From Bacteroidales bacterium (GTDB lineage: Bacteria; Bacteroidota; Bacteroidia; Bacteroidales; WCHB1-69): 64,000 bases of DNA. Within the stretch, counting starts at the first letter, position 1; each line of letters opens with the position of its first letter. The stretch spans positions 3,751 through 67,750 of the forward strand of contig JBGUMF010000048.1 in assembly GCA_045116675.1 (NCBI GenBank). The letters are read 5' to 3'. Of this stretch, positions 15,048-21,993 are shown in pieces. The notes under the pieces were generated by a model, which made no database searches, was not told the DNA's origin, and saw only the letters and a program-made list of their open reading frames with translations. Made by a program: the position numbers and the translations under genes.

Positions 15048-16118
15048 CTATTTTGTGGAATCTTGAATGACAATGATATGTTTGGTCTGTCGAATCTTCT
15101 TGACCACCACGGGTTGCGGAGTTTCTGACATTACGGTTGGATTGTCCAATGGGGCTGTCTCTTTGGGTGTGGTGGGTGCGGAAGAGGATGGGGTAGAGCG
15201 TTTTACGACAGGGCTTTTGTTCCCCGCTTCAAACAAAGCCGGCTCTTCCGAATCGTTTTCGGCGCTGCTGTCTGCCTCTGCTATAATGGGCTGAGGTTTT
15301 GAAACCTGCGGCGTTACGGTTGGATTGTCTTGCGGTGAGGGGAAGAGTAGGATGCCGGCGGTGATGGCTGCGCCGGTGGATGCGATGCCAGCGGTGACAG
15401 GAGCCCTGTGTGCATACATCCACAACTTGGGCGAGACTTTTGAGGTGGTGGGGAAGGCCTCTTCCTTCAGTGGTTGCAGCGGGGGGATGGCGAAATCTTT
15501 CAGCTGCGAGCGGCAATAACCGTCGATGGCTGTATCGGGATGAATGAATAATGGCAACAGTATCATAAGCAGGTGCTTTTTCTCTTTTGATTTGTTGAAC
15601 AATATCTTTTGCAGCTCCTTGCGCGCCCGTAGCAGGTGCGATTTGGAGGTGTTCGGAGAGATGTCCAGCAGTTTTGCAATCTGCTGATGGGTGAGCCGTT
15701 CGAAAACGTACAGGTTCAGCACTGTCCGGTGATGGTTGGGCAGTTGCGCGATGGCGTCCAGAATCTCCTCTTGGGAGAAGTCGGCTTTCCGGATGGCGGC
15801 CATCATATCGTCGGATGATAGCTCATTCTCTTCCGGAGTATCCGCTCCCAATGCTCTGGCATCATCCTTCAGTGGGCGTATGCGCTCCTGCTCCCTCAGG
15901 TGGAGCAGTGCCTTGTTGGCGGCAATACGCATCAGCCACCCCTCAAAGGAGCCGAACCCCCGGAAGGTGTCCGCCTTCTCGATGGCGGTGAGAAAGGCGT
16001 CGTGCGCAAGATCCTCGGCGATTGGCCGGTCAAGGACATATCGGTAGCACACGCCGATCATCTTTTCGATATTCTTTCTGTACGCTCTGGTCCAGAACGG
16101 TCTCATTCCATTTGTCAT
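15048..16118 (-). CDS. ECF-type sigma-70 factor with a 180-aa membrane-spanning C-terminal extension
   Basis: Region 2 DLAHDAFLTAI...WLMRIAANKA. Region 4 LPNHHRTVLNLYVFERLTHQQIAKLLDISPNTSKSHLLRARKEL. Then TM APVTAGIASTGAAITAGILLF and a Pro/Ser/Thr-rich tail. Confidence 0.8.
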   Translation of the reverse strand: MTNGMRPFWTRAYRKNIEKMIGVCYRYVLDRPIAEDLAHDAFLTAIEKADTFRGFGSFEGWLMRIAANKALLHLREQERIRPLKDDARALGADTPEENELSSDDMMAAIRKADFSQEEILDAIAQLPNHHRTVLNLYVFERLTHQQIAKLLDISPNTSKSHLLRARKELQKILFNKSKEKKHLLMILLPLFIHPDTAIDGYCRSQLKDFAIPPLQPLKEEAFPTTSKVSPKLWMYAHRAPVTAGIASTGAAITAGILLFPSPQDNPTVTPQVSKPQPIIAEADSSAENDSEEPALFEAGNKSPVVKRSTPSSSAPTTPKETAPLDNPTVMSETPQPVVVKKIRQTKHIIVIQDSTK

Positions 16119-16144
16119 ACTTGCAATTCAGTGCTTTTCCGCGG

Positions 16145-16152
16145 CAAAACTA
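16145..16152 (-). promoter_or_regulatory. -7 box
   Basis: Reverse strand TAGTTTTG, 27 nt upstream of the start at 16118. Confidence 0.4.
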
Positions 16153-16310
16153 CAAAAATGCCAGTGTTGAACGGAATCCCTCTTAATTTTTTTTTCTTTT
16201 CCCTTTTATTGATTTCGTTAGACAATCATTCGTTATACATCCGTGGATGTAACACTATGATGCAAGAATCGCAAATGGTTGCAGTAGGTTGAAAAATTTT
16301 TTTCGATGAA

Positions 16311-16365
16311 TGATTTGGCCGCAAACAATGTCGTTCAGTTCACGAGCCAAGGCTGATTTGTGGAC
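16311..16365 (-). pseudogene. relic of a HEPN gene 3' end
   Basis: About 80 percent identical by eye to 19717-19770 of the intact HEPN gene. The minus-frame translation KSALARELNDIVCGQII compares with KSALARELNETVCGQII. No start and no upstream half. Confidence 0.55.
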
Positions 16366-16390
16366 ATTCTCCCATTCTTATTTTGATTAC

Positions 16391-16423
16391 AAAAAACAGC
16401 GACTTACTTTCGTAAATCGCTGT
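16391..16423 (-). terminator. hairpin plus T-run after tRNA-fragment copy A
   Basis: acagcgactta/taaatcgctgt stem, homologous to the hairpin behind the intact tRNA at 20320-20350. Confidence 0.5.
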
Positions 16424-16430
16424 CGTTTTT

Positions 16431-16459
16431 TGAGCGACAGACGGGGTTCGAACCCGCGA
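16431..16459 (-). repeat. tRNA 3'-end fragment, copy A (att-like direct repeat)
   Basis: tgagcgacagacggggttcgaacccgcga is the T-arm plus 3' acceptor strand only. Identical to copy B. Shares the 21-nt block agacggggttcgaacccgcga with the intact tRNA-Gly. Confidence 0.85.
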
Positions 16460-16464
16460 TTTTA

Positions 16465-16481
16465 GGGATAGAACGGAGAAA
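16465..16481. repeat. degenerate inverted copy of the GGGACA arm motif
   Basis: gggatagaacggagaaa compares with the reverse complement of the arm motif, gggacagaaacgggacaaa. Confidence 0.5.
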
Positions 16482-16491
16482 TTCCGTAAAG

Positions 16492-17994
16492 CTAAACGCC
16501 TTTGTAAGGCGTTCTCAAATGTTGGCCACGGAGTTCGTCCAGCTTTTCCTGGTTAAAGGTGCCGTTCTCCCACATTTGGTCAATTTCTTGTTGTGCCTTT
16601 TCGGCATACATAGTTGTGTCTTCAGTTTCGTCGTACAGATTGGAGATTGTAAATAGCGGCAGTATTTTCACATGCCGTAACGCGCCATTGTCTTTTTTGT
16701 CGCAATGCTCCAATTCGGCAAAATTCTCCAGAGAGCATCGGACAGCTTCGGTCAGATGTTTCTGTCGCATAAACTCATACAGACTTTTCATCTTACCGCT
16801 CATTCCAGCCTTACATTCGATAGGTAGCACTTTCATGTCGCGGGCTATGATGTAATCCACCTCTGAACGCGTTCCTTCGGCGGTGTTCTCCCAATAGTAT
16901 AGCTCATGTTGGGAACGAGGGTTGTTGTATTTTATGAGTTCCCAGCCTAACACCATCTCGGTCAGGCCGCCTTTGTTTACCAAATCTTCGGTAGTGCCGG
17001 CCAGAATCATATCGGTCAACTGTCGCGCACCACCCAAATCCAAGTCGAGAATGCGCAGCAACAGTCCGCTGTCAAGATATAGATATTTGCGATATTTTTC
17101 ATTGACCTCCGCCCCGAGCGGCAATCCGTTGCCCGCCGTGTGGCTCACCCGCTTGATGATACCTGCATCGCACAGGAGCTTCAATGCCTTTTTCACCTCT
17201 TCGGCACGATAGCCTCCCTCCACATGACTGTAGGTAAACTTCTCTCCAATCTGTATTACGACACTTTGCAGTGTGTTGCGAAGCAGAGTAGGATCGACCT
17301 TTTTAGCGTATTTTGGGAAATCATCGTAGTAGGTAAGTTGTATGTCATCAAGTTCGGTCTGGCATTGGCGGTAGTCGTGGGTTGAAACCCAGGCGGCCAC
17401 GCTGGCGGGCATGCCGCCTACCATCAGGAAGGTGCGGAAGTGTTGCACAAGTTCGTTGTGCATAGCCGTAAGCAGCGGATTCTCTGTGTTTGCATCCTTC
17501 TTGGCTTTCACCCAGGCCGATTTCCCTTCCGCCACCAAAAACTCGTCGAACGAGAAAGGATAGACGAATAGCGAGCGTATGCGTCCCACCCCAAACGATG
17601 GCAACTCTTTGAGAGTGAACTCCAGTAATGAGCCTGCTGCCACCACGTGAAGTTCCGGAAAATCTTCCTTGAATGACCAGAGACTCTTAATGGCATCGGC
17701 AGAAGCCTGTATCTCATCCAGGAAAAGCAAAGTTTTCCCAGGAATCACCGGAGTGCTATATAGCATGCTCAGGTTATTGGCCAAGTCATGTATATCATGG
17801 ATTTTCTGAAAAACCTCCAACATGTCGGGTCGTTTTTCAAAGTTGACTTCAATGAAGTAATCGAACGTTTCACCCAAATGTTTTACTGCTGACGATTTAC
17901 CAACTTGGCGTGCCCCTCTTAGCAAAAGTGGTTTGAGCCGTTTGCTATTCTTCCATTCCAGGAGCAAAGAGTCGATAGGTCTTTCTATATACAT
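16492..17994 (-). CDS. AAA+ ATPase fused to a DUF4143-type PD-(D/E)xK nuclease-like domain
   Basis: Walker A GARQVGKSS, Walker B LLFLDEIQ, and a C-terminal EVDYII...VLPIECKAG restriction-endonuclease-like motif (COG1373-type architecture). An extra acidic tail of about 45 aa follows. Confidence 0.85.
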   Translation of the reverse strand: MYIERPIDSLLLEWKNSKRLKPLLLRGARQVGKSSAVKHLGETFDYFIEVNFEKRPDMLEVFQKIHDIHDLANNLSMLYSTPVIPGKTLLFLDEIQASADAIKSLWSFKEDFPELHVVAAGSLLEFTLKELPSFGVGRIRSLFVYPFSFDEFLVAEGKSAWVKAKKDANTENPLLTAMHNELVQHFRTFLMVGGMPASVAAWVSTHDYRQCQTELDDIQLTYYDDFPKYAKKVDPTLLRNTLQSVVIQIGEKFTYSHVEGGYRAEEVKKALKLLCDAGIIKRVSHTAGNGLPLGAEVNEKYRKYLYLDSGLLLRILDLDLGGARQLTDMILAGTTEDLVNKGGLTEMVLGWELIKYNNPRSQHELYYWENTAEGTRSEVDYIIARDMKVLPIECKAGMSGKMKSLYEFMRQKHLTEAVRCSLENFAELEHCDKKDNGALRHVKILPLFTISNLYDETEDTTMYAEKAQQEIDQMWENGTFNQEKLDELRGQHLRTPYKGV

Positions 17995-18024
17995 TTCTAT
18001 TTTTATCGTTGATGATTACGCCGG

Positions 18025-18032
18025 CAAAAATA
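18025..18032 (-). promoter_or_regulatory. -7 box
   Basis: Reverse strand TATTTTTG, 31 nt upstream of the start at 17994. Confidence 0.45.
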
Positions 18033-18041
18033 ATAAATTTC

Positions 18042-18125
18042 GATAAAACCGAGATGAATAAACGCAAGTTTTTTGATAAAACCGAGACGAATAATGATTC
18101 GATTTTTGATAAAACCGAGACGAAT
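18042..18125. repeat. three 18-nt direct repeats at an exact 33-nt period
   Basis: gataaaaccgaga(t/c)gaat at 18042, 18075 and 18108, immediately upstream of the ATPase promoter. Confidence 0.85.
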
Positions 18126-18195
18126 CTTTATTAATAAACTTTAATACGCTGAATTTCAAATATCTACAATCAAGATATTCCTGTATAAAATCTCA

Positions 18196-18220
18196 TTTCG
18201 TCCCGTTTCTGTCCCGATTT
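18196..18220. repeat. GGGACA arm motif, copy 1
   Basis: tttcgtcccgtttctgtcccgattt, near-identical to 20287-20311. Confidence 0.8.
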
Positions 18221-18259
18221 TAAAACAAAAATCAGTAGCTTACATCGGTAAGTTACTGA
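18221..18259 (-). terminator. hairpin plus T-rich tract after tRNA-fragment copy B
   Basis: 12-bp stem tcagtagcttac/gtaagttactga (one G-T pair), then tttttgtttta on the minus strand. Confidence 0.5.
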
Positions 18260-18281
18260 CACTGATTTGATTACAAGACTT

Positions 18282-18310
18282 TGAGCGACAGACGGGGTTC
18301 GAACCCGCGA
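18282..18310 (-). repeat. tRNA 3'-end fragment, copy B (att-like direct repeat)
   Basis: tgagcgacagacggggttcgaacccgcga, identical to copy A. No 5' acceptor strand, D-arm or anticodon arm upstream. Confidence 0.85.
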
Positions 18311-18314
18311 TTCT

Positions 18315-18337
18315 CGGACACTGCCCCCTTGGACAAA
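18315..18337. repeat. inverted GGACA half-sites flanking copy B
   Basis: cggacactgcccccttggacaaa. Two GGACA half-sites in the opposite orientation to the arm motif, with a longer spacer. Confidence 0.45.
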
Positions 18338-18402
18338 TTCTTTTTATCAACTTGCTGAATGTTAATAATTTGAGAATTACACTTTTGGTCATTTTTGCAT
18401 TG

Positions 18403-18426
18403 TTTTGTCCCGATTCTGTCCCGAAA
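18403..18426. repeat. GGGACA arm motif, internal copy
   Basis: ttttgtcccgattctgtcccgaaa, followed by two small hairpins (18445-18470 and 18474-18507) but no tRNA-like core. Confidence 0.7.
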
Positions 18427-18557
18427 CAAAACAATAAAAATAACTGATTTTCAATCAATTATCAGTATTTTTGATGCACCCTTTACGATAGGGGAAAAGC
18501 GGTGCATTTTTTTGTTGTTTCTCAAAGAACGCAAAATTTTGTAGCAAAAATTTGCGG

Positions 18558-18565
18558 CAAAAATA
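18558..18565 (-). promoter_or_regulatory. orphan -7 box facing the non-coding 18.3-18.55 kb stretch
   Basis: Reverse strand TATTTTTG. No credible ORF lies downstream. Confidence 0.3.
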
Positions 18566-18648
18566 TGCATTTTTTGGACTCCAAAAGCGTGTGTTCTAAC
18601 AAAAAAATGGATGACAAATATCGTACTGTGCCAGTATGAGAAAAAATG

Positions 18649-18656
18649 TATTTTTG
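18649..18656 (+). promoter_or_regulatory. -7 box
   Basis: TATTTTTG, 57 nt upstream of the ATG at 18713. Confidence 0.45.
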
Positions 18657-18712
18657 CGAGGTCATAGCTATTAGAGAGATAATATGACAAGAGAGAATAA
18701 TTATTATTACGT

Positions 18713-19339
18713 ATGCAAATTGAAGATTCACATCGCGACTATTACGATTATGCTTGTCCGCATTTGATTGACAAAGCCATAGTCTATCATCGGAACAGTC
18801 AGATTGTTTTGGGACAGGAACTCTTTTTCAACTCAAACCCTTTCCAGATCGATATGGACAAATGGTTCAATAAGTTTGATCATCAGTGGCATTGTCAAAC
18901 GTGGGAGTTTGGACTCTATGTCGGGTATGAATACTACAAATTTTTAGTTGGCAGATATTTCGAAAAAAGTCATCTCATTCTGGAATATTTGCAAGCTACG
19001 GAGTCAGAGCGTGAGAAAAATGAACGAGAATCTTTGAAACGGCCATCCAACGCTGCAATCGTATTGGTTTCAAAATACGGGATGTATAATGACCGTTTTG
19101 CCGGACGGGAATTGCGTTTCACCCGGGAGTATTGGCAAGTTGATCATGCTCTAATAGAAAACCCAATTTTAAAAGAGACATGGCTCACAAAGGTTCTTTC
19201 GCCCGAGAGCGTATGGACCAATGTCTATAACTATTTGGTGGCCACAAAAGATGAGCCCGTTCAGGACAGTCGCACAAACACAGAGAAAATTCTGTCAGCA
19301 GGCTTTGACACAAAGACCAGTTTCAGAAATGTGAAATAA
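18713..19339 (+). CDS. hypothetical protein, no recognisable domain
   Basis: 208-aa ORF with its own promoter box and protein-like composition (rich in W/Y/H/E). Visibly AT-rich codon usage. Convergent with HEPN-MNT. Confidence 0.6.
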   Translation: MQIEDSHRDYYDYACPHLIDKAIVYHRNSQIVLGQELFFNSNPFQIDMDKWFNKFDHQWHCQTWEFGLYVGYEYYKFLVGRYFEKSHLILEYLQATESEREKNERESLKRPSNAAIVLVSKYGMYNDRFAGRELRFTREYWQVDHALIENPILKETWLTKVLSPESVWTNVYNYLVATKDEPVQDSRTNTEKILSAGFDTKTSFRNVK

Positions 19340-19394
19340 AGAACAATGAATGCAAAAATAGGTCTGCAAAACGAAAAAAGTACCTATTCAAATA

Positions 19395-19691
19395 CTACAC
19401 GGCAACTCCCGTGCGCAGGACATCATCATACAAGGGTGAAGGATAGCGTTCCTCTAAAAGGACAGGTTCAATAAGTGTATTCAGTTTCCGGGAGGCTGTC
19501 CAAAGCTTTGTGGTGGCGGTCAACCAGTCGCCGTCCAGCAACGGCACCACAACGGCAATGTCAATGTCGCTGCCGTCATGTGCGCATCCCTTGCTGTAGG
19601 AACCGTACAAGAACACTTTCGGAGAGTTGAAAAGCCCCGAAATCTCTTCCTTGTATTGCTTGGCTAACATTAGAGCTTGTTCTCTATCCAT
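19395..19691 (-). CDS. minimal nucleotidyltransferase (MNT) of a HEPN-MNT pair
   Basis: LYGSYSKGCAHDGSDIDIAVV (GS...DxD). An alternative start at 19670 overlaps the HEPN stop (TAATG). Confidence 0.85.
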   Translation of the reverse strand: MDREQALMLAKQYKEEISGLFNSPKVFLYGSYSKGCAHDGSDIDIAVVVPLLDGDWLTATTKLWTASRKLNTLIEPVLLEERYPSPLYDDVLRTGVAV

Positions 19692-20071
19692 TGTTTCAGA
19701 TTCTTTGTTCGTTCAATAATTTGGCCGCAAACGGTCTCATTCAGTTCGCGAGCCAGAGCTGACTTATAAGAGGGGTATCTTGCCTCAATGTTCATAGGCA
19801 TCATCATATCAAGGAACAACCGTTGCTCTTCTGTCATCTCTTCCAAAATACCAGAATTCTCCGCCAATCTGACCAAGTTGTGGACGTAAGGCGGGTCAAT
19901 CTCTTGTGAGGAGCACCAGTAAGCCTTGAGGGTTTTCTCCAACACTTGATGGCACATGAAACCCACGTACAACCACCGTTTGGTGGAGTACATTGCCTCA
20001 GCCGTGACAACGTCATAGTCGGCCAGTTCCATCCAGTATGATATTTTTTCCTCTCTTGTCATAATATTCAT
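19670..20071 (-). CDS. HEPN domain protein of a HEPN-MNT pair
   Basis: 133-aa helical protein (CHQVLEKTLKAYW...VHNLVRLAE...EARYP), directly upstream of and overlapping the MNT gene, which is the usual arrangement. Confidence 0.8.
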   Translation of the reverse strand: MNIMTREEKISYWMELADYDVVTAEAMYSTKRWLYVGFMCHQVLEKTLKAYWCSSQEIDPPYVHNLVRLAENSGILEEMTEEQRLFLDMMMPMNIEARYPSYKSALARELNETVCGQIIERTKNLKQWIENKL

Positions 20072-20088
20072 GAATAGAATATCAACGG

Positions 20089-20096
20089 CAAAAATA
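20089..20096 (-). promoter_or_regulatory. -7 box
   Basis: Reverse strand TATTTTTG, 18 nt upstream of the start at 20071. Confidence 0.4.
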
Positions 20097-20286
20097 CATT
20101 TTTTTGTTTACATATACGTAGAGACACAAAATTTTGCGTCACTACAGATGATTCGCGTGTCCTTGTACCCGTTAGGATGCCTTAATCGGTCCTCGAACCA
20201 ATGTGTCTGCGGTTCGAAAACAATAATTTTGTAACATATTGAAGTTCAACATCTTATGTTTCAATAGGAAACAGTATAAAACCTCA

Positions 20287-20311
20287 TTTTGTCCCGTTTC
20301 TGTCCCGATTT
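20287..20311. repeat. GGGACA arm motif, copy 2
   Basis: ttttgtcccgtttctgtcccgattt. The flank ..gtataaaa(c/t)ctcattt.. is also shared with the copy at 18181-18195. Confidence 0.8.
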
Positions 20312-20312
20312 G

Positions 20313-20350
20313 CAAAAAAAACAGCGATTTTACGGCTGTAAATCGCTGTT
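20313..20350 (-). terminator. Rho-independent terminator of tRNA-Gly
   Basis: 11-bp stem aacagcgattt/aaatcgctgtt, followed on the minus strand by a T-run (the A-run at 20314-20319). Confidence 0.7.
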
Positions 20351-20363
20351 TTTCAGTGTTTTG

Positions 20364-20436
20364 AGCGGTAGACGGGGTTCGAACCCGCGACCTGCGGCTT
20401 GGGAAGCCGCCGCTCTGCCAACTGAGCTACTACCGC
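20364..20436 (-). tRNA. tRNA-Gly (anticodon CCC)
   Basis: Hand-folded cloverleaf. Acceptor GCGGTAG/CTACCGC, D-arm GCTC-AGTTGGCA-GAGC, anticodon arm GCGGC-TTCCCAA-GCCGC, 5-nt variable loop, T-arm GCGGG-TTCGAAC-CCCGT, discriminator T. CCA is not encoded. Confidence 0.9.
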
Positions 20437-20476
20437 ACTATTTTATTAAGTTATTAAAATATTAAATCATTAAAAA

Positions 20477-20484
20477 CAAAGATA
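20477..20484 (-). promoter_or_regulatory. -7 box for the tRNA
   Basis: Reverse strand TATCTTTG, about 40 nt upstream of the tRNA 5' end. Confidence 0.4.
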
Positions 20485-20558
20485 ACACGCTTTCAAATTA
20501 CCGATTGTTGTGTGTTTATAATTTAGCAGTTTAATAATTTAATAGTTTAATAGCATTA

Positions 20559-21656
20559 TTATACATTGAATCGAATATGCAGAATGTCACCGTCCTGCAC
20601 TTCGTAATTCTTCCCCTCTACATATAGTTTGCCGGCCTCTTTGCATTTGAGCTCGGAGCCGAGCGTTTTCAAATCCTCGTATTTGATGACCTCGGCGCGG
20701 ATGAAGCCGCGTTCCAGGTCGCTGTGTATGACGCCTGCGGCCTGCGGCGCCAGCATGCCTCGTCGGATGGTCCAGGCGCGGTTCTCCTTTCCACCCACCG
20801 TGAAGAAGGAGATGAGGTCCAGCATCTTGTATGCCGCGCGTATCACCTTGTTCACGCCCGGTTCGGTAAGCCCCACGTCCTCAAGGAACGCCTTGCGGTC
20901 CTCTTCACTGTCCAACTCGGCGATTTCCGATTCTATCTTAGCGGCTATCACCAGCATCTCGCCACCATTCTCCTCCACATATTTCTTCACCGCCTCCGAA
21001 TAGGTGTTGCCGTTGACAGCATCGTCGTCATTCACATTGCACACGAAAAGCACCGGTTTTTCCGTCAGCAGCATCATATCGGCCACCACGGCGTGCTCGT
21101 CGTCCGTCACCTCCAAGGTGCGCACATTCTGGAAACCCTCCAGATGCTCCTTGTATTTTTTCAGCACCTCATAATCGTGTTTGGCAGTCTTGTCGCCGAT
21201 TTTGGCGGCTTTTTCCACTTTGGCAATCTTCCGCTCAACCTGTTCCAAGTCCTTGCACTGCAGCTCAAAATCCACAATCTCGATATCGCGGACGGGATCT
21301 ACGGAGCCTTCCTCGTGGGGGAGGGCCGGGTTGTCGAAGCAGCGCAGCACGTGGATCAGCGCGTCGCAGAGGCGCACGTCGGCCAGGAAGCTGTTGCCGA
21401 TGCCGGCACCCTGGCTGGCACCTTTTGCCAAACCGGGGATGTCCACCAGGTCCAAGTTGGCAAACACCAACTTGTCAGCCTTGATGAAGGTGTTGATGTG
21501 GGTCAAGCGGTCATCGGGCACCGCGCAAACCCCGATGTTGGATTTGTTGGTGCTGTAGGCAAACTCGGTCACGGCAGCCTTGGTGTTCGATATGCAATTG
21601 AACATCGTTGTCTTACCGGAGTTCGTCAGTCCCACTATGCCGCATTTGAGTCCCAT
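20559..21656 (-). CDS. ychF: redox-regulated ATPase YchF
   Basis: MGLKCGIVGLTNSGKTT P-loop, DIPGLAKGAS, and a C-terminal TGS-like end GDILHIRFNV. Confidence 0.95.
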   Translation of the reverse strand: MGLKCGIVGLTNSGKTTMFNCISNTKAAVTEFAYSTNKSNIGVCAVPDDRLTHINTFIKADKLVFANLDLVDIPGLAKGASQGAGIGNSFLADVRLCDALIHVLRCFDNPALPHEEGSVDPVRDIEIVDFELQCKDLEQVERKIAKVEKAAKIGDKTAKHDYEVLKKYKEHLEGFQNVRTLEVTDDEHAVVADMMLLTEKPVLFVCNVNDDDAVNGNTYSEAVKKYVEENGGEMLVIAAKIESEIAELDSEEDRKAFLEDVGLTEPGVNKVIRAAYKMLDLISFFTVGGKENRAWTIRRGMLAPQAAGVIHSDLERGFIRAEVIKYEDLKTLGSELKCKEAGKLYVEGKNYEVQDGDILHIRFNV

Positions 21657-21690
21657 GATGTTAGCTTTTGGTTATAGGTTATTGGTGAAC

Positions 21691-21746
21691 AATTATTAAT
21701 TGTTAATTATTCATTGTTAATTATTCATTATTCATTGTTAATTGTC
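21691..21746. repeat. 8 x 7-nt tandem array ((a/c)att(a/g)tt) in the nifU-like/ychF spacer
   Basis: aattatt aattgtt aattatt cattgtt aattatt cattatt cattgtt aattgtc, read directly from the sequence. Confidence 0.85.
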
Positions 21747-21993
21747 AAAACCCCAGGATAATGTCTTCCACCCGGTCAATCTCGGGCAGATAGTGCTTGA
21801 GAGTCTGCTCCACACCGTTTTTCAGAGTCATCTTGGCATGGGGACAGGAACCGCAGGCACCCTGCAGCTTTACTTTTACCACATTGTCGGAAGTGAGTTC
21901 CACAAATTCAATGTCGCCGCCATCCTGCTGGAGGTAGGGGCGGATTTGGTCGATGATGGATTTCACTTTCTGTTCGAGTGTCGGACTTTCCAT
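21745..21993 (-). CDS. NifU-like (Nfu C-terminal domain) Fe-S cluster protein
   Basis: IRPYLQQDGGDIEFV...LQGACGSCPHA with the CxxC motif. Confidence 0.85.
   Translation of the reverse strand: MESPTLEQKVKSIIDQIRPYLQQDGGDIEFVELTSDNVVKVKLQGACGSCPHAKMTLKNGVEQTLKHYLPEIDRVEDIILGF

Follow-up and report, generated by a model that had tools for sequence, protein, structure and literature searches.

The locus described here raises the question of how the 3′ end of one tRNA gene came to be present three times, in direct orientation, around small gene cassettes with no recombinase of their own. It occupies positions 16298-20436 of a 64-kb stretch of DNA from a Bacteroidales bacterium (contig JBGUMF010000048.1; the whole stretch that was analysed is hereafter called the window). 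The closest genomes were uncultured rumen Bacteroidales metagenome-assembled genomes, the best match being L002 with 96% YchF amino-acid identity (L numbers denote the loci compared). The results of this study indicate that 16298-20436 is most probably an accretion array at the bacterial attachment site (attB) of a tRNA-Gly(CCC)-specific lambda-type tyrosine integrase, which belongs to siphovirus-like temperate phages of rumen Bacteroidales.

tRNA genes were called with ARAGORN and Rfam, and both found the intact tRNA-Gly(CCC) gene on the minus strand (start at 20363 or 20364, end at 20436), which is the sole tRNA gene of the window. The 21-mer AGACGGGGTTCGAACCCGCGA occurred exactly three times, on one strand, at 16439, 18290 and 20370, and 0 times in the 100 shuffles from which its chance level was estimated. 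The full repeat is 29 nt long and runs from the T-stem 5′ strand through the discriminator; its copy at 20362-20390 is the 3′ 29 nt of the tRNA gene and constitutes the attL core, and the other two are referred to as repeat B and the distal repeat C (Table 1). Repeats B and C were identical to each other and differed from the gene at two acceptor positions (CTGTCGC vs CTACCGC, tRNA orientation). A core formed by a tRNA 3′ end, as is typical of lambda-type att sites, is thus present, with the 29-nt identity recurring three times (apart from these two positions) and the intact tRNA folding at 70 bits. Behind each copy, on the minus strand, lay a hairpin and a T-run; the hairpin z-scores were -6.8 for repeat C, a weaker -2.1 for repeat B and -5.6 for the gene, and the hairpins behind repeat C and the gene were homologous (80% over 75 nt, the repeat itself included). 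The original prediction, made from the letters of the window, had described the tRNA gene, its repeats, the acceptor differences and the hairpins, and they were confirmed by the tRNA callers, alignment and folding. It had also described the enclosed DNA as more AT-rich than the flanks (GC 0.51-0.60); this held for cassette 2 and the junctions (GC 0.34-0.48) but not for the ATPase gene (ca. 0.50).

A 16-nt direct-repeat motif, GGGACAGAA(A/T)CGGGAC in the tRNA orientation, flanks the copies at 18200-18215, 18407-18422 and 20291-20306, with 0.15 occurrences expected by chance. One occurrence follows the tRNA end and another follows repeat B, each at ca. 55-70 nt, and the third precedes repeat B by ca. 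95 nt; within the window, GGGACAGAANCGGGAC was confined to these three junction positions. When a stricter 22-nt form of the motif was searched in viral contigs and metagenome loci, it was recovered from one viral contig (L082) and 59 metagenome loci, in which it was located ca. 45-75 nt 3′ of tRNA-Gly(CCC), -Ser(CGA), -Ser(GCT), -Met or -His genes in the same orientation. The remaining metagenome occurrences belonged to a conserved P-arm module, starting 117 nt (and ending 103 nt) before the T-loop of a tRNA 3′ fragment. The half-sites of the motif co-varied, being GGGACA twice, GAGACA twice or GGAACA twice (site forms GGGACAGAAACGGGAC, GAGACAGAAATGAGAC and GGAACAGAAACGGAAC), which is the pattern expected for an arm site bound by a protein.

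These motifs are part of larger arm modules. The P′ arm of cassette 2 contains a terminator hairpin (20317-20353, z -5.6), the motif GGGACAGAAACGGGAC (20291-20306) and a conserved tail ending in a palindrome. In its P arm, two hairpins (18425-18520) are combined with the motif GGGACAGAATCGGGAC (18407-18422), and a 92-nt spacer leads to the core. In the P′ arm of cassette 1, a type II hairpin (ca. 18234-18275, z -2.1) accompanies the motif GGGACAGAAACGGGAC (18200-18215). A full phage attachment site (attP) for comparison was provided by L157, the unintegrated or permuted form of a tRNA-His phage. It consists of the hairpin CTGATAACTGATTGAAAATCAGTTAT, GAGACAGAAATGAGAC, ca. 100 nt and 28 nt of the tRNA-His 3′ end, followed on the other side of this core by a hairpin, GGGACAGAATCGGGAC and the integrase gene. 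The P arm at junction B showed 85% identity to that of L157 over 141 nt; the motif-to-T-loop spacing was 117 nt in both, and the T-loop-to-P′-motif spacing was 90 vs 92 nt. The core of junction B is therefore flanked on either side by arm repeats at fixed spacings, as in lambda-type att sites, and the match of this junction to L157 implies that the hairpin behind each repeat is a replacement tRNA terminator carried in the P′ arm. By this comparison of sequences, the three tRNA 3′ copies were shown to correspond to att cores of predicted lambda-type tyrosine integrase sites.

The claim of the original prediction that direct repeats of a tRNA 3′ end are the footprint of tyrosine-recombinase integration with tandem accretion was thus supported by the phage att architecture, and also by a prophage at the same attB (see below). 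Its further statement that the extra copies are not simple local duplications was borne out as well: local duplication was rejected, since the flanks of the three copies differ and each has homologues in other genomes, in changed order. It is extremely improbable that the extra copies are the remains of a decayed tandem tRNA-Gly gene array. Such an array would account for the direct orientation, for the homologous hairpins of the distal copy and the gene, and for a short GCCGCAG upstream of some repeats that resembles the anticodon-stem 3′ strand. However, the Rfam scan (15900-20700, E ≤ 1) detected no partial tRNA at the repeats, the upstream module of ca. 300 nt recurs before tRNA-Ser and -His fragments and in phage attP, and the empty sites of L005 and L006 hold a single gene. 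The original prediction had named 5′ halves in relatives as the sign of a former array; none was present in ca. 40 related loci, and the extra copies are preceded instead by the phage P-arm module of ca. 300 nt.

The family of the recombinase that would act on these sites was identified from other loci, in agreement with the earlier proposal that it is encoded elsewhere: the GGGACA motif and core signature adjoin integrase genes in phage and prophage contigs. Members of one integrase family, 33-56% identical, start ca. 45-60 nt after the motif in L082, L087, L092, L098, L108 and L142, and integrase genes were also located directly downstream of it in L153-L167, with this same spacing in L153-L164; the motif-linked integrases match Pfam Phage_integrase and phrog_1. 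The viral contig L082 carries the motif twice, 172 nt apart, directly before the tyrosine integrase gene, and represents a phage with endolysin, primase and methylase genes. In L108, tRNA-Gly is followed by a hairpin of the repeat-B type, the motif and then the integrase gene, whose product used as a query gave 316 relatives at E ≤ 1e-30. One of these, P0001 (97% identical), is encoded in L163 and L164 directly after ychF and tRNA-Gly and is followed by tail-fibre and tape-measure genes; P0007 (78% identical) belongs to the tRNA-His phage of L157. The source elements are temperate phages and not integrative and conjugative elements (ICEs). Both the L163 and L164 contigs stop inside or just past the tRNA-Gly prophage, which may reflect population heterogeneity at the site, with lysogens and non-lysogens in those samples.

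The related genomes showed every occupancy state that the original prediction had led us to look for, and a full prophage in addition. The attB was empty in L005 and L006, which are more distant relatives and in which tRNA-Gly is followed by unrelated DNA without the hairpin-motif module. A single cassette at tRNA-Gly was found in L147, L151 and L002, and two or more in the window, L095, L140 and L141 (two cores in the latter three). A full prophage occupied the ychF/tRNA-Gly site in the sister lineages L108, L163 and L164, the only ones of the ca. 40 loci with an integrase at tRNA-Gly; at this attB they have the cognate integrase adjacent to the att site that is expected of a lambda-type system and that the window lacks. 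In L002, the tRNA and a second core enclose an antitoxin-PIN pair and an ArsP/HMA permease gene; this cassette shares homologous P′ and P modules with cassette 2 (92% and 90.5%), but its cargo is wholly different. In L004, the ATPase cassette adjoins the tRNA. The cargo over the ca. 40 loci comprised PDC-S01 ATPases (10 loci), two kinds of HEPN-MNT modules, PIN genes, HigB-like/helix-turn-helix pairs and unknown proteins. Array content thus varies across the clade, contrary to the fixed content that would have spoken against mobility.

The same survey bears on whether a dedicated, integron-like platform, in which a resident non-phage chromosomal recombinase captures and reorders cassettes at tRNA-derived sites, could have built the array. 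Cassettes of ca. 2 kb with one to three genes, arranged in arrays between conserved site modules, and the variation of array order between genomes resemble such a platform. It is nevertheless very unlikely, since the motif-linked integrases were all in a phage or prophage context (tail, lysis, primase) or on contigs that are too short (L087, L092, L098), the 10 kb around ychF revealed no integrase linked to a platform in any of the ca. 40 cassette loci, and the sites are of the lambda-type P-core-P′ form of ca. 480 nt and not attC hairpins.

The features of the locus are listed in Table 1. Cassette 2 (18311-20362) carries HEPN, MNT and orf208 genes and has both arms. Its ends are a complete attL (tRNA, hairpin, GGGACA motif) and an attP-like junction, in which the P arm with its motif and the core lead into the P′ arm of the neighbouring unit. 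Cassette 1 (16460-18281) carries the ATPase gene and retains the P′ arm but has lost the P arm. Of an older third cassette only a remnant is left, which matched cassette 2 in blastn at 80% over 75 nt and, in the HEPN fragment, at 81% over 62 nt (to 19704-19765, E 6e-13); both matches run in the same order as in cassette 2, and ca. 520 nt have been deleted between them. Decay thus grows with distance from the tRNA, from both arms in cassette 2 to one in cassette 1 and a mere remnant beyond. The description of the units as cis-mobilisable or decayed cassettes was accordingly supported, cassette 2 with its two arms being potentially mobilisable and the other two units decayed. The array is flanked on the left by an extracytoplasmic function (ECF) sigma/anti-sigma gene and chromosomal genes, and on the right by ychF, a FecCD permease gene and housekeeping genes.

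Table 1. Features of the tRNA-Gly(CCC) array; positions are those of the window.
Feature	Position	Strand	Evidence
Intact tRNA-Gly(CCC)	20363..20436	-	ARAGORN; Rfam tRNA 70.1 bits; 100% identical to tRNA of L004, L147
P′ arm module, cassette 2	20186..20362	-	Homologous in 35 loci; layout as integrase-linked attL of L108, L163
HEPN-domain toxin gene, cassette 2	19670..20071	-	Pfam HEPN 1.4e-18; 99.7% nt identity to L147
MNT-type nucleotidyltransferase, antitoxin partner, cassette 2	19395..19691	-	Pfam NTP_transf_2; weak PADLOC PDC-S09 match
orf208, cassette 2	18713..19339	+	Pfam: none above threshold; 99.8% nt identity to L147
P arm module, cassette 2	18311..18610	-	Homologous in 28 loci, including before tRNA-Ser and other tRNA fragments
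tRNA 3′ repeat B, core of attP-like junction between cassettes 2 and 1	18282..18310	-	Window-L147 homology stops exactly at 18282
P′ arm, cassette 1	18183..18281	-	85% over 86 nt to P′ arm before L108 integrase
Three 33-nt tandem repeats, candidate operator, cassette 1	18036..18136	.	Directly upstream of ATPase promoter box and start codon
AAA_14 + DUF4143 ATPase, 500 aa, cassette 1	16492..17994	-	Pfam; PADLOC candidate defence PDC-S01, 1.5e-130
tRNA 3′ repeat C (distal att remnant)	16431..16459	-	32 nt from ATPase stop codon; P arm lost
Remnant of older third cassette	16298..16430	-	Type I hairpin 16395-16424, decayed motif, 62-nt HEPN 3′ fragment 16298-16359

How the cassettes spread was examined through their homologues in other species. 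In L147 and L151, homology to the window extends from the tRNA to the last base of repeat B (20450-18282; 94.8% over 2174 nt), and the core-to-core period is 2080 nt in the window and in both of them; past the repeat, the sequence of L147 is unrelated, with a terminator and a gene of its own. The HEPN, MNT and orf208 genes of L147 are 99.7%, 98.3% and 99.8% identical to those of the window, and its ychF is 82% identical. The ychF genes of five carriers of the MNT gene (L145, L146, L147, L151 and L152) are 6-12% apart from one another and ca. 18% from that of the window, and the exact 91-aa MNT protein was indexed in 66 collection blocks. Exact-protein look-ups returned a single 1.7-kb contig for orf208 and the 120-aa HEPN protein, and zero matches for YchF and for the ATPase. 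The ATPase-gene segment was 97% identical in L140 (1713 nt aligned) and 92.8% identical in L004 (1658 nt aligned), the ychF of L004 being 82.3% identical. Since the unit is without an integrase in both species and homology on the right-hand side is lacking, it appears to have been already integrase-less when it entered by site-specific recombination, with the integrase acting in trans or in cis within a phage composite.

These comparisons also weigh on a simpler account, in which the cassettes are inert scars of separate prophages that spread only by descent and by homologous recombination of the ychF-tRNA neighbourhood. Deletions are evident (the P arm missing at 16460-16491, the HEPN remnant, and L145 and L150 without P arm and repeat), an identity step to L002 near 21750 points to homologous exchange, and an integrase gene was not found in the window, all of which speak for such an account. 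It is nonetheless unlikely, because the genes of the integrase-less unit are 98-99.8% identical in two species with ychF at only 82% and with unrelated DNA to the right of the repeat; the shared integrase-less structure indicates that the unit had no integrase already when it moved. In addition, most integrase-less P′ arms share AAATGAGnTTTTATAC after the motif, regardless of hairpin type, and phage P′ arms lack it. This restriction argues against repeated independent decay and fits a propagating integrase-less lineage.

Based on the reading of the locus as a phage-derived accretion array, it was hypothesised that the units arose and moved as described below. The integrase-less units would be phage att scaffolds in which cargo has replaced the phage genome. 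They would enter by recombination between attP and attB, with the cognate phage integrase supplied in trans or, alternatively, in cis, from a tandem prophage-cassette composite that excises via its outermost sites. Newcomers would insert at the intact tRNA, so that older units are displaced outward and decay, and homologous recombination between arm modules, together with deletions, would reshuffle the cargo. Cassette 2 would be excisable if a cognate integrase is present, and cassette 1 would not be on its own. A broader hypothesis can be put forward only tentatively: that the integrase-less units are self-perpetuating, attP-only hitchhiker cassettes with P/P′ arms of ca. 480 nt around one to three defence or toxin-antitoxin genes. 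One family of temperate phages from rumen Bacteroidales would supply the integrases, and probably also the virions, by which these units move, and core swaps would give them access to Gly, Ser, His and Met sites.

Several observations weigh against the phage-derived accretion array, or at least against site-specific integration as its only source. The 64-kb window yielded no integrase, excisionase or phage gene, and a cognate integrase of this genome is hypothetical. A custom hidden Markov model (HMM) built from the integrases identified at other loci, which was sensitive enough to pick up distant recombinases in other loci, matched zero window open reading frames (ORFs) of at least 70 aa at E ≤ 1. 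Pfam, run on 40 window ORFs (five ORFs of at least 840 aa lay outside that scan), returned only housekeeping or cargo families and zero integrase, transposase, relaxase or phage genes; these scans agree with the earlier statement that the window encodes no integrase, excisionase, transposase or relaxase. Neither an excised circle nor a restored junction was among the observations. Binding of the integrase to the GGGACA arm motif is predicted from the position of the motif, and the crossover point may be in either the T-loop or the 3′ acceptor strand. Placing the crossover by the acceptor polymorphisms (C/T at 66, AC/GT at 68-69) was dropped: the tRNA copies track the host and the repeats track the type b P arm, but type a arms carry mixed alleles.

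The remaining points of this kind concern homologous recombination. The proximal part of the P arm of cassette 2 is only 53% identical between the window and L147 (GGGACA vs GAGACA motif) and is of the L002 type in the window, which indicates that mosaicism by homologous recombination was also involved. The two acceptor differences mirror alleles of different lineages. CTGTCGC, the L002-type allele carried by the repeats, is native to the tRNA of L002, L005 and L131 together with the 5′ strand GCGATAG, whereas both halves of the window tRNA are of the common allele (GCGGTAG/CTACCGC). Across ychF (20559-21750), identity to L002 falls from ca. 93% to ca. 85% with a break near 21750, and the ychF-tRNA spacer is unalignable. 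This suggests that the ychF-tRNA segment was imported by homologous recombination, as the allele pattern is unexplained by site-specific integration alone. Sequential integration as the sole history was therefore rejected, since the 5′ half of the tRNA also differs from the repeats and ychF shows a recombination step; we infer at least one homologous exchange, with the conserved arm modules or ychF serving as homology.

Several further observations were made on the cassette genes and arms. orf208 was compared with a 244-aa protein encoded at the same position in other cassettes and proved unrelated to it (BLASTP E 0.55), which rules out a hidden conserved mobility gene; the sole PHROG match of orf208 spans 38 C-terminal aa. 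The last ca. 38 codons of the ATPase gene (16491-16606) match the 3′ end of the 76-aa antitoxin ORF before the PIN gene in L002 (11610-11725) at 92% identity, so that the end of the ATPase gene is chimeric, a record of deletion or fusion; the distal ATPase/repeat junction is also present in L140, shorter by 31 nt. The 33-nt tandem repeats upstream of the ATPase gene have the core TTCGTCTCGGTTTTATCAAAA (minus strand). The triple repeat precedes ATPase homologues, or lies ca. 30-35 nt before the contig end in front of them, in L088, L089, L114 and L139, and in L095, L112, L127 and L128 it comes after the P′ arm, with a non-ATPase ORF next. It looks like an operator for a regulator, possibly the ATPase itself.

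In the P′ arm, a palindrome at ca. 20190-20225 (minus strand GTTTTCGAACCGCAGACACATTGGTTCGAGGACCGAT) resembles a degenerate variable loop and T-arm of tRNA-Gly. It forms the exact end of the shared P′ module, beyond which the cargo is HEPN in the window and L106 and antitoxin-PIN in L002, L090, L117 and L123, and it may represent a former core or a secondary site of recombination. In the P arm, 18425-18570 (minus strand) has a Bacteroidetes-type -7 box, TATTTTTG, facing two stable hairpins, the second with a T-run (z -3.5). This region, which had zero Rfam matches, could encode a small transcript or be a terminator pair; over 15900-20700, Rfam returned the tRNA and two sub-threshold chance hits, and the conserved arms match no known small RNA or riboswitch. 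A search of IMG/VR with the P-arm hairpin pattern gave 0 matches, and the integrase-less P arm was matched afterwards via L157. In L085, L099, L102, L119, L126, L133 and L137, tRNA-Ser or tRNA-His genes are followed by the hairpin-motif P′ arm without an integrase homologue, which indicates that cassettes of the same family occupy other tRNA sites too; in L085, a P arm and a Ser fragment also follow at a distance of 2.9 kb downstream. In L144 (9150-10280), a HEPN-MNT module (94.8% identical) is located downstream of DarT, Macro, HNH and Resolvase genes, with a core reduced to the last 14 nt (CCGTCTACCGCTCA) and a P′ arm with the GAGACA variant. This may be a secondary-site event, and the short core hints at a crossover 3′ of the T-loop.

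Among known systems, the array is closest to the cis-mobilisable elements (CIMEs) which, together with tandem accretion, were defined for ICESt1/ICESt3-related islands of Streptococcus thermophilus (PMC5704250, citing Pavlovic 2004 and Bellanger 2011). CIMEs are without integration and transfer genes, keep attL and attR, stand in tandem at the 3′ end of the target, form arrays by successive site-specific integration, and are expected to be mobilised by a related integrase-bearing element (PMC5704250). Cassette 2 likewise keeps both ends (attL at the tRNA and the junction at 18183-18610), which cassette 1 does not, and the window cassettes hold HEPN, MNT, orf208 and ATPase genes only, with zero integrase HMM matches. 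The origin from an ICE or an integrative and mobilisable element that defines CIMEs is not seen: the arms are homologous to attP/attL of elements with tail, lysis and primase genes, and relaxase or type IV secretion system genes were found in none of the loci. The window units further differ from CIMEs in their phage-derived arms, their size of ca. 2 kb, the many cargos on the same 480-nt arms and the cores for at least five tRNA species, with mobilisation predicted from indirect evidence, namely the near-identical genes and the boundaries at the att cores in L147. The array is thus phage-derived and CIME-like, and its present-day excision and integration are predicted.

The ccr-less pseudo-SCC (staphylococcal cassette chromosome) elements and SCC composite islands at staphylococcal rlmH (orfX) are also recombinase-less, are bounded by direct repeats of the target 3′ end and occur in tandem, and presumably depend on the recombinase of another element, as is proposed for the window cassettes. 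SCC differ in their serine recombinase Ccr, their short integration site sequence (ISS) repeats without lambda-type arms, their far larger size and their protein-coding target. Mobile integron arrays resemble the window in their small cargo units, mostly promoter-containing and rich in toxin-antitoxin genes, each with a recombination site and reliant on a tyrosine recombinase encoded outside the cassette. The window lacks the integron components intI (IntI), attI, Pc and attC, however, and has instead double-stranded lambda-type att sites with arm repeats, a tRNA core and a phage integrase. Nor is it a phage satellite (phage-inducible chromosomal island or P4-like), as its cargo is without integrase, replication or capsid-hijacking families of Pfam and PHROG. 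In the parts of PMC3146451 drawn on here, the Dehalococcoides ssrA islands likewise form tandem series at the 3′ end of a small RNA gene (tmRNA), and multiple direct repeats of that end mark the module boundaries, but they have their own integrase and span tens of kb, against 2-kb units without integrase in the window. Cryptic or grounded prophage remnants (a topic of PMC6379469) are in general also phage-derived DNA left at a tRNA attB after genome loss; unlike them, the window cassettes have zero phage genes, cassette 2 keeps both arms, and the integrase-less unit itself spread between species. A family of integrase-less att cassettes was not found described in full-text literature searches.

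The findings indicate that tiny defence and toxin-antitoxin modules cross species of rumen Bacteroidales without mobility genes of their own, borrowing the att arms of temperate phages. They provide a searchable signature, namely a tRNA 3′ end, a hairpin and AATCGGGACAGAAACGGGAC together with the P arm of ca. 300 nt, which finds both cassettes and helper phages in Bacteroidales metagenomes; the likely helper integrase is of the L108/P0001 type, and a real attP is available in L157. DUF4143, present in the ATPase of cassette 1, is listed among the PD-(D/E)XK families (PMC3424549), and among single defence-candidate loci PDC-S01 was reported to be the one found most often in rumen genomes (PMC13356809). 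If the tentative view of self-perpetuating hitchhiker cassettes is true, defence genes would be exchanged in a phage-driven, integron-like manner, which could help explain this frequency (PMC13356809). If mobilisation is confirmed, the concept of CIMEs and accretion, developed for ICEs of Firmicutes, would cover phages of Bacteroidota as well, and phage lysogeny would be tied directly to the turnover of anti-phage genes.

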